IMG/VR virus record: IMGVR_UViG_2802429224_000004
Location: 31,285 to 95,284 of that record
DNA: 64,000 bases
Source of the DNA: a virus
Lineage: Duplodnaviria; Heunggongvirae; Uroviricota; Caudoviricetes
Strand: one strand, 5' to 3'
A program made the position numbers and the translations under genes. The notes beneath the pieces are model-generated. The model did no database searches, was not told the DNA's origin, and saw only the letters and a list, made by a program, of their open reading frames with translations. This document shows positions 7,712 to 50,255 of the stretch, one piece after another. The first letter of the stretch is position 1; every line of letters starts with the position of its first letter.

Positions 7712-8512
7712 ATGCAACAAACATTCAATGCGGATATGAATATATCAAACCTTCATCAAAATGTCGATCCTTCAACCACTCTGCCTGTTATTTGTGGTGT
7801 TGAAATTACGACCGACCGCGCTGGCCGTTACAACCTTAATGCTCTACACAGAGCGAGCGGACTCGGTGCCCATAAAGCGCCAGCTCAATGGCTAAGAACG
7901 CTGTCAGCCAAACAGCTCATCGAAGAGCTTGAAAAAGAAACTATGCAGAATTGCATAGTTTCGTTCGAAGGCCGTGGCGGCGGCACTTTTGCCCATGAAT
8001 TGCTCGCTGTGGAGTACGCAGGCTGTATTTCTCCCGCGTTTCGGCTGAAGGTAAACCAGACATTTATCGACTATCGAGCCGGAAGATTACAACCTGCTAT
8101 TCCGCAGAGTCTCCCTGAAGCTCTCCGTTTGGCTGCCGACCTGGCAGAGCAAAAGCAACGGCAGGAGCAAAAAATGCTTATGGATGCACCTAAAGTCGAA
8201 TTCGCCGAACGCGTTGCTACCGCCAGCGGGGTTCTAATCGGCAACTATGCCAAAGTGCTCGGCCTGGGACAAAACTATCTCTTCACCTGGTTGCGTGATA
8301 ACGGAATTCTGATCGCAACCGGTGAACGCAGGAACGTCCCCAAACAAGAATACATATCCCGTGGGTACTTCACCCTCAAAGAAACCGTGATCGATACAAG
8401 CAACGGAAGCAGGATTTCTTTCACGACTCGTATAACCGGCAAAGGTCAGCAGTGGCTAATGAAGCGATTGCTTGATGCTGGTGTGCTGGTACCTGTCGCG
8501 GCTACGCGCTAA
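7712..8512 (+). CDS. kilA: KilA (KilA-N domain plus Ant-type C-terminal domain)
   Basis: 266 aa, same length as P1 KilA as remembered; N-terminal KilA-N-like region, C-terminal GKGQQWLMKRLLDAGVL. Confidence 0.7.
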   Translation: MQQTFNADMNISNLHQNVDPSTTLPVICGVEITTDRAGRYNLNALHRASGLGAHKAPAQWLRTLSAKQLIEELEKETMQNCIVSFEGRGGGTFAHELLAVEYAGCISPAFRLKVNQTFIDYRAGRLQPAIPQSLPEALRLAADLAEQKQRQEQKMLMDAPKVEFAERVATASGVLIGNYAKVLGLGQNYLFTWLRDNGILIATGERRNVPKQEYISRGYFTLKETVIDTSNGSRISFTTRITGKGQQWLMKRLLDAGVLVPVAATR

Positions 8513-8541: not shown

Positions 8542-9387
8542 ATGCTGGCTAAAGTCACTTTCCTGAGCTGTATAACGATGAGCGATTTTACTTTTTCTGG
8601 CTATGAATTGGCCTGCTTTGTAACACACTCCGGTCTATCCCGTAGCGCCGGGCATATCCTGTCGCAATGTGCAAATCTTGCGGCAACAACCAGTGAATAC
8701 TTCATTCACAAGCCTCACCGCATGATCGCGGCAGAAACTGGTTATAGCCAATCAACCGTCGTTCGCGCATTCCGTGAAGCTGTAAACAAAGGAATCCTGT
8801 CGGTAGAGATTGTTATCGGCGATCACCGTGAACGCCGCGCTAACCTGTACCGGTTTACACCATCCTTTTTAGCCTTTGCTCAACAAGCCAAAAATGCGCT
8901 AATTGAAAGCAAATTAAAGATCTCTTCAGCCGCAACCAAGGTTAAAGCTGTTCTCGCTAAAGCATTGGCTTTATTTGATTTTTTATCCACACCCCCATGT
9001 CAAAATGATACCCCCTCCCCCTGTCAGGATGACGTGGCAATAAAGAATAAGAAGTCACAATTTAAAAAAACAAAAAGATCAGTTTCCGGCGCTGCCGGAA
9101 CGACCAAACTCAAAAAATTGACTTCATGGATCGCTGGGGCAAAAGCAAAGGCCGACAATCTGCGTTTATCCAAAAAACGCGCTCAAAAACATGAGTTCCA
9201 GCAGAAAGTTGAGGCAGCGGCCCGGAAATATGCTTACCTGAAGAGCAAGCGTTCTCCTGATATTGGCGGGATATCAAACTTCGATAATCTGCCGCATTGC
9301 ATGACGGTAAACGAAGCTCTTAATGCGGTTTTAGCCAAAAATAACGATAACGAACAATGGGGTATACCGGCAGGATTCAGAGGGTGA
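8542..9387 (+). CDS. repL: RepL lytic replication initiator (oriL expected inside)
   Basis: 281 aa immediately after kilA; length and synteny match P1 RepL as remembered. Confidence 0.6.
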   Translation: MLAKVTFLSCITMSDFTFSGYELACFVTHSGLSRSAGHILSQCANLAATTSEYFIHKPHRMIAAETGYSQSTVVRAFREAVNKGILSVEIVIGDHRERRANLYRFTPSFLAFAQQAKNALIESKLKISSAATKVKAVLAKALALFDFLSTPPCQNDTPSPCQDDVAIKNKKSQFKKTKRSVSGAAGTTKLKKLTSWIAGAKAKADNLRLSKKRAQKHEFQQKVEAAARKYAYLKSKRSPDIGGISNFDNLPHCMTVNEALNAVLAKNNDNEQWGIPAGFRG

Positions 9388-9437
9388 TAAATTGCTCTAA
9401 TCTGGGGTCACCTGGCGTTTTCAGTTTGAGGTCGGAG

Positions 9438-9683
9438 ATGCAATCTGATTTTTTACAGTTAGCGATCGCTTTTGCCGTATATGTTTGCATTGGCTTCTGT
9501 GTATGCATGATCAGCCGAAAAATGCTTGTCGATATCGACCGCAAAGAACGAGCAGAGGAAATCTTAGTATGGATTTTCTTTGGCGCGGTCTGGCCATTAG
9601 GGATCATGTTTGCTGCAACGTTTCTTCTGATGTGGATATTCACCCTTCCTGGTGATTTCTATAGAAAAAAAGCCAGACATTGA
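9438..9683 (+). CDS. Small membrane protein, about 2 TM helices
   Basis: Start taken at the internal ATG after GAGGTCGGAG; hydrophobic 81 aa. Confidence 0.35.
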   Translation: MQSDFLQLAIAFAVYVCIGFCVCMISRKMLVDIDRKERAEEILVWIFFGAVWPLGIMFAATFLLMWIFTLPGDFYRKKARH

Positions 9684-9806
9684 TACAATCGCTGCGGGTG
9701 CTTGAGGCTATCTGCTTCAGGCATTACCCGAAAAGCAGATAGAAGAAAGCCCCAGATAACATTACGCGTCCGGCAAGACGCTTAACATTAATCTGAGGCC
9801 ACATCT

Positions 9807-10013
9807 ATGCTTAACATACGTAGATTAGCCTCTTACCGACCAAAAGGTCAAGGAGAAGCAGGCTATGAAGCAGCAAAAGGCGATGTTAATCGCCCTGATC
9901 GTCATCTGTTTAACCGTCATTGTGACGGCACTGGTAACGAGGAAAGACCTCTGCGAGGTACGAATCCGAACCGGACAGACGGAGGTCACTGTCTTCACAG
10001 CCTACGAATCTGA
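9807..10013 (+). CDS. mok-like overlapping reading frame of a hok-family locus
   Basis: 68 aa ORF overlapping the hok-like CDS in another frame. Confidence 0.3.
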   Translation: MLNIRRLASYRPKGQGEAGYEAAKGDVNRPDRHLFNRHCDGTGNEERPLRGTNPNRTDGGHCLHSLRI

Positions 10014-10020
10014 AAGGTAA
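9865..10020 (+). CDS. Hok/Gef-family type I toxin (51 aa)
   Basis: Hand translation: MKQQKAMLIALIVICLTVIVTALVTRKDLCEVRIRTGQTEVTVFTAYESER; a GC hairpin follows at about 10028-10047. Too short for the ORF track. Confidence 0.6.
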   Translation: MKQQKAMLIALIVICLTVIVTALVTRKDLCEVRIRTGQTEVTVFTAYESER

Positions 10021-10093
10021 GAGACCTGGCGGGGAGAGATCCCCGCCACTCTTCGTGTGTCAGGTATCCTCAATGCACCCTTTCCTCTCCAAA

Positions 10094-10122
10094 TAAAAAA
10101 GCTCCCGAAGGAGCTTTAAAAT
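10094..10122. terminator. Bidirectional terminator between hok locus and the structural operon
   Basis: A-run, AGCTCC-CGAA-GGAGCT hairpin, T-run. Confidence 0.5.
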
Positions 10123-10136
10123 ACAAGGGATGACTC

Positions 10137-10646
10137 TTAATCCCAGTCAATCCAGTTGTAGACGATACGAAGTGACGGGCGCACAGCGGCAGTCACATCT
10201 TCGGTACCAAAGTCGATTGCATCACTGTAGATTTTGCAGTCCAACATTTCAATTGTTGTAGCAGCTTTTGTCACAGCGTTAACCCCGGAAGATTTGGATT
10301 CAGGGGTCGCAGCCATCGTGATATCAACATAGTCCTTCGCCGCAATGCGATCTTTAATGAACTGAAGAATATCTCCTTCGATAGTCTCCACGCACTGAAC
10401 CTGGATTTCCCCGGAGTTACGGATTGGGCCGTGCTGGTTGAACTTCACACCATTCGGACCATAGTCTTCCACATCCTCGCGGGTCATTTCAGGGATTTGC
10501 GACGTGCGAACCAATACGCTGATATCTTCATAGCCTGCAAAAGTGAGCTGGAATTCAGAAGATACCAGTCGTTCGCCTTTGGCCGCGTTGGCAGTATAGC
10601 GGCCCTTAATAAATTTACGGTTTCCCTTAGTGTTATTGTGTCCCAT
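10137..10646 (-). CDS. Tail or baseplate structural protein
   Basis: 169 aa in the structural operon. Confidence 0.4.
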   Translation of the reverse strand: MGHNNTKGNRKFIKGRYTANAAKGERLVSSEFQLTFAGYEDISVLVRTSQIPEMTREDVEDYGPNGVKFNQHGPIRNSGEIQVQCVETIEGDILQFIKDRIAAKDYVDITMAATPESKSSGVNAVTKAATTIEMLDCKIYSDAIDFGTEDVTAAVRPSLRIVYNWIDWD

Positions 10647-49653: not shown

Positions 49654-49875
49654 ATGCAATCCATTAACTTCCGTACCGCGCGTGGCAACCTTTCTGAAGT
49701 GCTCAACAATGTTGAAGCTGGGGAAGAGATTGAAATCACCCGCAGAGGCCGTGAGCCAGCAGTAATTGTCAGCAAGGCTACTTTCGAAGCCTACAAAAAA
49801 GCAGCGCTGGATGCTGAATTTGCATCCCTGTTTGACACCCTGGACTCCACCAACAAGGAACTGGTTAACCGATAA
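49654..49875 (+). CDS. phd: Phd antitoxin
   Basis: 73 aa [39 protein letters not shown]...; GTGTAC-type palindromes upstream. Confidence 0.85.
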
Positions 49876-50255
49876 TGAGGCATATATCACCGGAAGAACT
49901 TATTGCGCTTCATGATGCGAATATAAGCCGCTACGGCGGCCTGCCGGGAATGTCAGATCCGGGTAGGGCAGAGGCCATTATCGGGAGAGTTCAGGCCAGA
50001 GTTGCCTACGAAGAGATCACCGACCTTTTCGAAGTCTCCGCCACCTACCTAGTGGCTACAGCGAGAGGGCATATATTCAATGATGCCAATAAGCGTACCG
50101 CGCTAAACAGTGCGCTGCTATTTCTACGCCGTAACGGGGTGCAGGTATTTGATTCACCTGAACTGGCAGACCTTACCGTAGGCGCTGCGACTGGCGAGAT
50201 ATCTGTATCTTCTGTCGCCGACACGTTACGTAGATTGTATGGTTCCGCGGAGTAG
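49875..50255 (+). CDS. doc: Doc toxin (Fic domain)
   Basis: 126 aa; start overlaps phd stop (TAATG); [11 protein letters not shown] Fic-like motif. Confidence 0.85.

Follow-up and report, generated by a model that had tools for sequence, protein, structure and literature searches.

A predicted type I toxin-antitoxin locus (hok/mok/sok, hokD/hokW subfamily) in the repL-bplB interval of a P1-like plasmid prophage

Introduction

An open reading frame of 51 codons downstream of repL in a P1-like plasmid prophage raises the question of whether it is the toxin gene of a complete hok/sok system and, if so, what such a system does on an element that also carries phd-doc. The element is represented by the IMG/VR record IMGVR_UViG_2802429224_000004, of which we analysed a stretch of 64,000 nucleotides (positions 31,285 to 95,284 of the record; hereafter the window, with positions counted from its first letter). 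A first-pass annotation made from the letters alone had described an unannotated hok/mok-type locus at 9780-10050, and had proposed that it would give the plasmid a second post-segregational killing system.

We compared the locus with hokW of phage 933W, one R1-type locus and 64 further unique relatives from phage contigs, and took the structure and conservation statistics from an alignment of 65 unique related loci. [quoted passage not shown] The hok/sok locus is a common and already named feature of P1-like phage-plasmids; the additions made here to the known module are the full coordinates of its RNA elements, a wider span, an R1-like mok register and figures for its prevalence.

Results

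The 51-amino-acid sequence quoted in the first-pass annotation was found on the plus strand (Table 1) and is the only hok copy within the window. It matched the Pfam family HOK_GEF (PF01848) over all 42 positions of the profile (E = 2.4e-22; 78.7 bits, the cut-off being 22) and PHROG 251, described as 'MokW-like host killing' (E = 4.9e-32), and the similarity to Hok that a database search was meant to check was in this way borne out. Hok/Gef toxins are small (~50 residues), and their domain combines a transmembrane helix at the N-terminus with a periplasmic Cys that is conserved; by its size and its full-length Pfam match the product is a member of this family. Its coding region is the best-conserved part of the module (entropy of 0.064 bits per column across the 65 loci). 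The identical protein occurs under the name HokD in at least 1000 public contigs. Its scores against two NCBIfam models were below the curated cut-offs (Hok family HMM NF007279, 49.5 against 73; HokA HMM, 38.1 against 89), yet PGAP calls the protein HokD, so the name must stem from another rule; the assignment of the ORF to Hok is unambiguous and is left unchanged by these scores. The protein is nearly identical (96% over 50 residues) to HokD (RelF) of the Qin prophage of E. coli K-12, and this near identity accounts for the gene name hokD given by PGAP. Pedersen and Gerdes are said to have described the K-12 hokD copy in 1999 as one without the upstream mok/sok/tac region; the locus found here (P1-type) has that region in full.

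Table 1. Features of the hok/mok/sok cassette and of its surroundings (window positions).
Feature	Position	Strand	Remarks
kilA	7712-8512		local gene order
repL	8542-9387		local gene order
81-aa membrane ORF	9438-9683	+	GGAG ribosome-binding site; phrog_3772, E = 5e-52; hydrophobic, probably membrane-spanning stretches
Predicted hok promoter	9662..9689	+	-35 TAGAAA 9662-9667, 16-nt spacer, extended -10 TGaTACAAT ending at 9689; promoter scan
Predicted full-length mok-hok mRNA	9696..10117	+	5' end by homology (start of the Rfam leader match); 3' end at or before the backbone hairpin 10098-10117
tac (translational activator element), GGGTGCTTGAGG	9696..9707	+	invariant in 65 loci; pairs with fbi
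Local tac partner in the nascent metastable hairpin (9696-9729)	9714..9729	+	from the fold of the truncated mRNA; putative role by R1 analogy
ucb / anti-SD box, AAGCCCCAGAT	9747..9757	+	pairs with the mok SD (closed form), can pair with tac (open form); helix 5 of the full-length fold
Predicted Sok RNA, ~70-75 nt	9741..9815	-	single-stranded 5' leader, long hairpin, U-rich tail GGGGCUUUCUUCU; both ends approximate
mok Shine-Dalgarno GAGG	9795..9798	+	8 nt before the mok ATG; invariant (65 loci)
Sok-target hairpin, mok AUG in stem	9803-9825	+	inner hairpin 89.9% paired (65 loci); Rfam structure line
mok leader ORF, 68 codons	9807..10013	+	+1 frame relative to hok; ATG 58 nt 5' of the hok ATG
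Predicted sok promoter	9822..9851	-	-35 TTGACC 9851-9846, 18-nt spacer, -10 TAATCT 9827-9822
dcb GCCTC	9828-9832	+	closes the Sok-target hairpin; open-form partner of the mok SD region; SD-dcb 100% paired (65 loci)
hok toxin gene (HokD/HokW type), 51 aa	9865..10020	+	PF01848, phrog_251; GGAG Shine-Dalgarno 9852-9855
GC-rich 3' stem-loop, GGCGGGGAGAGATCCCCGCC	10028..10047	+	9-bp stem; helix 17, 92.1% paired across loci
3' segment pairing with the mok initiation region 9807-9824 (closed form)	10050..10067	+	helix 6; three pairs changed on both sides, 79% paired
fbi (fold-back inhibitory element), CCTCAATGCACCC	10068..10080	+	complementary to tac, with a one-base bulge
P1 backbone hairpin	10098..10117	.	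strong bplB terminator (-); terminator scan found the minus strand only
bplB	10137-10646	-	3' of hok/sok in local order
phd	49654-49872		in window
doc	49875-50252		in window

The overlapping mok-like frame claimed for the locus proved to be a leader ORF with its own Shine-Dalgarno sequence, an upstream start and a reading frame that continues through the hok initiation region, and its predicted product matched phrog_37205. Its spacing and frame are those of R1, in which the mok ATG (116-118) precedes the hok ATG (174-176) by 58 nt, the mok Shine-Dalgarno sequence is also GAGG and translation of mok is required only up to the hok initiation region (PMC9841398). In the lambdoid hokW type, to which 52 of the 65 unique loci belong, the upstream ATG lies 57 nt from that of hok and in frame with it, giving an extended Hok of 70 amino acids. 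The P1-type loci, 12 in all with the one in the window included, have an extra T (9848, in AAAGGTCAAGG) that brings the distance to 58 nt and produces the +1-frame ORF of 68 codons; the same T turns the sok -35 TTGCCT of lambdoid hokW into TTGACC and brings the spacer to 18 nt. The out-of-frame mok is not a defect, because both registers exist and R1 proper has the 58-nt one. The notion that mok is generally out of frame was ruled out by an IncFII locus with a Hok identical to that of R1, in which the upstream start is in frame at 57 nt.

Two further observations concern the reading frames. Three loci had a T as at 9848 but also lacked one nucleotide close to the sok -10, a compensating deletion by which both frame and spacing are restored. 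The +1 frame was without a stop for 49 codons across hok (9864-10013) in all 65 loci, among them 53 with an upstream start in frame with hok, which thus do not use the +1 frame; the third frame across hok runs into an immediate stop. The open +1 frame may be left over from an ancestral mok that was out of frame, or the hok sequence itself may impose it.

Upstream of the leader, the -10 of the hok promoter aligned with TAGAAT of 933W hokW, and transcription is expected to start near G9696. Homology with the lambdoid hokW loci extended exactly from this -10 to the last base of fbi, and comparison with the relatives set the conserved module at 9687-10080, or at ~9662-10117 with promoter and terminator; the span flagged in the first-pass annotation covers part of the locus and was too narrow. 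The GC hairpin reported at the 3' end was found as a stem-loop (helix 17); among the 65 loci one of its pairs had both partners changed and six had a single partner changed. It does not act as a terminator. In R1 the role of the 3' stem-loop comes from mutagenesis (PMC9841398), and by analogy the GC hairpin would be the terminal hairpin of the processed, active mRNA and would block 3'-5' exonucleases. The hairpin that follows fbi is part of the P1 backbone; as only TTTAAAAT comes after it on the plus strand, it is at best a weak hok terminator.

The RNA of 390 nt from 9696 to 10085 had a predicted fold of -160 kcal/mol (z = -9.67), with none of 100 shuffled sequences folding as well, and in the minimum-energy structure a 12-bp tac-fbi helix closed the 5' and 3' ends. 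In the alignment of 65 sequences 92.8% of the pair cells were paired, compared to 37-44% when the partners were slid. Ten pairs were changed on both sides; such pairs occurred in the 5' hairpin, the Sok-target stem and the 3' stem-loop, and also in one coding-region helix and in the helix that the 3' segment forms with the mok initiation region. The tac-fbi helix was paired in 100% of the loci, with changes only from G-C to G-U, and all seven tac-ucb pairs were invariant. Compensatory changes sought across the 65 loci in tac-fbi, tac-ucb and SD-dcb were not found, these helices being invariant or changed on one side; they are backed by conservation and complementarity, and covariation speaks neither for nor against them. 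In a fold of the mRNA without its 3' end (9696-10050), tac refolded locally and the stretch just 3' of the mok start codon was freed. The predicted duplex energies were -21.0 kcal/mol for tac with fbi, -19.4 for tac with its metastable partner and -16.2 for the mok initiation region with the 3' segment, and the weaker duplexes were those of the SD with the anti-SD box (-11.5), tac with ucb (-10.7) and the SD with dcb (-9.3). The tac-fbi lock, the alternative pairings and the 3' stem-loop of a hok/sok mRNA were all found, by fold, by complementarity and by the SD/dcb stem of the Rfam structure. For the R1-type locus, the minimum-energy duplex of tac with its own 3' UTR was a split and uninformative pairing. 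The sequence elements, the conservation and the complementarities of the ~9662-10117 cassette are direct observations.

The minus strand around 9780-9860, where a sok-like promoter had been suggested as a check, holds a predicted promoter (Table 1) that was placed via homology to sokW and R1. Its block of TTGACC, 18 nt and TAATCT is conserved across the 65 loci and homologous to the sokW promoter. A generic sigma-70 scan detected the hok promoter and no minus-strand sok promoter; a TAATCT -10 with an 18-nt spacer is too weak for such a scan. This -10 is positionally homologous to the sokW -10 TAACCT, which Takada et al. mutated (primer YO-421) to silence the sokW promoter, and SokW was seen on a northern blot in the same study (PMC8621323). 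The predicted Sok matched in position the annotated 71-nt sokW of 933W, and its fold (-30.3 kcal/mol) had a z-score of -4.84.

The Rfam family RF01794 matched 9696-9870 end to end, with a score of 115.7 bits (gathering score 59) and an E-value of 3.5e-27. As the match is on the plus strand and the consensus ends at the hok AUG, the family models the hok mRNA leader and not the antisense RNA, and the 'sok' match was discounted as direct evidence of a Sok gene. RF01794 bears the name 'sok antitoxin (CssrC)' and strand calls are easily misread, the real Sok gene being the reverse complement of part of the match.

By far the most variable stretch of the 65 loci, which are otherwise 82-99% identical, was 9800-9814 at the mok start and the predicted Sok 5' leader, with a mean column entropy of 0.88 bits compared to 0.06 in the hok coding region. 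Twenty sequence variants were found over 9801-9824, and the partner segment 10050-10067 changes along with them. The number of matching hok places per E. coli genome had a median of two and reached ten. The stretch 9800-9814, recognised by the single-stranded leader of Sok, may set the specificity between Sok and hok among the hok loci of one genome.

The closest characterised locus is hokW-sokW (with mokW) of the Stx lambdoid phages 933W and Sp5, with 88.8% nucleotide identity over exactly 9687-10080. The tac, ucb, SD, dcb and fbi blocks are common to both, the sok promoters are homologous, and the Hok of the P1-type locus differs from HokW in a few C-terminal residues. The two loci differ in the mok register and the sok -35 described above, in the sequence of the Sok 5' leader and mok-start segment, and in their host, which is an integrated lambdoid prophage for hokW-sokW and a plasmid prophage for the P1-type locus. 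HokW is toxic and located in the inner membrane, SokW neutralises it and both RNAs have been detected (PMC8621323). The archetype, hok/sok (parB) of R1, has the same architecture and order of elements as the P1-type locus, and shares with it a +1-frame mok whose start precedes that of hok by 58 nt, a GAGG SD, a dcb that overlaps the sok -10 and a low-copy plasmid replicon as carrier. The complementarity of the 5' and 3' ends is kept, whereas their sequences differ (GGCGCUU/AAGCGCC in the R1 type, GGGUGCUU/AAUGCACCC in the P1-type), and the two Hok proteins are only ~42% identical. In the R1 leader the 5' hairpin is longer and the Sok-target stem shorter, and R1 has its own terminator after fbi, whereas in the P1-type locus the next hairpin is that of the P1 backbone.

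The cassette is part of a 0.69-kb segment that separates repL from bplB. It is downstream of repL, as had been stated, and directly so; the phd and doc genes, which had also been named, are both inside the window. Identity to the reference P1 genome ended at 9401, inside the C1 operator Op55/Orlf, and resumed at ~10093 at the bplB terminator, so the segment replaces rlfA-rlfB-pmgF of P1; at the Op55 junction (9391-9407) the sequence here is ATTGCTCTAAT followed directly by CTGGGG, compared to ATTGCTCTAATTATAAC in P1. The slot that the segment occupies is a variable one of the P1 backbone. The same arrangement was found in 254 of the 507 repL-bearing plasmids in PLSDB and in 235 of the 509 complete E. 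coli genomes that carry repL. In these plasmids and genomes the gene has the PGAP name hokD, and one phage record calls it 'MokW'; annotation of mok and sok was absent from the P1-like records inspected. The description of the locus as unannotated is right for the present record and wrong for its sister plasmids, hundreds of which carry a PGAP hokD. Searches of the literature on P1-like elements and phage-plasmids, RCS47 and SJ46 included, turned up no discussion of a hok gene in an element of the P1 type.

A weak terminator-like hairpin was seen on the plus strand at 9640-9655 (TCACCCTTCCTGGTGA then TTTCTATAGA), at the 3' end of the 81-aa ORF and immediately ahead of the hok -35. Read-through from the kilA-repL operon into hok/sok could be reduced in part by this hairpin.

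Discussion

Judged by its family membership and by the integrity of its elements, the P1-type locus is very likely an active type I toxin-antitoxin system; its transcription, processing, toxicity and biological role we infer. A modest constitutive promoter would yield a stable hok mRNA of ~385-420 nt. At full length this mRNA would be inert, with tac paired to fbi, the mok start region held by 10050-10067 and the mok SD held by the anti-SD box. Slow trimming of the 3' end back to the stem-loop 10028-10047 would remove fbi, upon which the 5' end would refold and expose the mok ribosome-binding site in the Sok-target hairpin. There it would be met by Sok, a short-lived RNA of ~70-75 nt supplied by the minus-strand promoter (9851-9822), which would pair, stop mok translation and trigger cleavage. 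Once Sok is no longer made, ribosomes translating mok would open the hok start, and the 51-aa Hok would enter the inner membrane and kill the cell.

The most likely role of the P1-type cassette, by analogy, is the killing of plasmid-free segregants of a unit-copy plasmid prophage, which we propose because of the family membership and the plasmid context. The context, a plasmid prophage carrying repL and phd-doc, fits post-segregational killing. Like hok/sok, phd-doc of P1 is a toxin-antitoxin system of this plasmid prophage that can kill segregants without the plasmid, but it shares neither sequence nor mechanism with hok/sok (its antitoxin is a protein that ClpXP degrades, and its toxin inhibits translation), and it is present in the reference P1 genome, whereas the hok cassette between repL and bplB is absent there. 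Segregant killing by both R1 hok-sok and P1 phd-doc has been observed in single cells, and after plasmid loss the onset of killing is at ~30 min for Hok and takes hours for type II systems such as phd-doc. The cassette would then be the fast-acting partner of the slower phd-doc, and its earlier description as a second addiction module is, on these parallels, a reasonable reading.

A role in the lytic cycle is a possible but distinctly less probable reason for the retention of an intact hok/sok. On induction Sok would be gone and Hok would permeabilise the membrane early, making lysis faster and phage release higher. The nearest tested relative is in fact tied to lysis on induction and not to plasmid stability: hokW-sokW was shown to speed lysis and phage release in the Stx phage Sp5, its deletion delayed growth arrest by ~40 min and halved phage release, and SokW vanished after mitomycin C in a RecA-dependent manner (PMC8621323). 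Most relatives are located in integrated lambdoid prophages, in which plasmid stabilisation is irrelevant, and the P1-type cassette lies directly 3' of the C1-repressed kilA-repL lytic-replication operon in the same orientation. However, the effect in Sp5 was modest (about two-fold), P1 possesses lysis genes of its own, and the terminator-like hairpin stands between the upstream ORF and hok. Help in lysis is also compatible with segregant killing, and both may apply.

Because the cassette is 3' of and co-oriented with the C1-repressed kilA-repL, and because the backbone junction cuts the C1 operator Op55, one could also imagine it wired to the P1 lytic switch, although we consider this doubtful. 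Read-through after inactivation of C1 would oppose the convergent sok promoter, lower Sok and free Hok during induction. If true, P1-like phages would have an induction-coupled membrane permeabiliser, and the loss of SokW in Sp5, so far unexplained, would have a concrete mechanism.

Phage exclusion is an unlikely role. A superinfecting lytic phage would stop host transcription, Sok would decay and Hok would kill the cell before the cycle of the invader ends. High-copy R1 hok-sok cut the plating efficiency of T4 by 42% and its plaque size by ~85%, according to the summary of that work given in PMC8621323, and the 0.69-kb segment lies in a variable slot of the P1 backbone. The R1 effect was, however, weak and needed a high copy number, whereas the P1 prophage is unit-copy; no PADLOC defence model was matched, and no feature sets the P1-type locus apart from an ordinary hok/sok. 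That the cassette is an inactive, functionless remnant, as are several of the hok loci in the chromosome of laboratory E. coli, is highly improbable. The sok promoter hexamers are weak, and the upstream ATG is out of frame with hok here, whereas most close relatives have it in frame; yet none of the regulatory elements is missing or damaged, the mok register equals that of functional R1, the hok coding region is the most conserved of the module, and the retention in hundreds of plasmids of an intact hok that would be lethal if unrepressed argues for a working Sok.

About half of the sequenced P1-like phage-plasmids, unlike the reference P1, appear to have two mechanistically different toxin-antitoxin modules, a fast and RNA-controlled hok/sok and a slower and protein-controlled phd-doc, which is relevant to the persistence of P1-like elements with resistance genes. 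The chief value of the result is in annotation quality, as the record is without a gene that PGAP names hokD in hundreds of sister plasmids. The locus is an ordinary one, and a hok/sok in a P1-like plasmid raises no new question.

A last observation concerns the 81-aa ORF upstream of hok, for which no Pfam, NCBIfam or PADLOC match was found. In the program-made list of reading frames it is stretched back to 9357, inside repL. It always accompanies the hok cassette in P1-like plasmids, and the exact 81-aa protein is recorded only for Escherichia sp. MOD1-EC5948 (WP_105288833.1).
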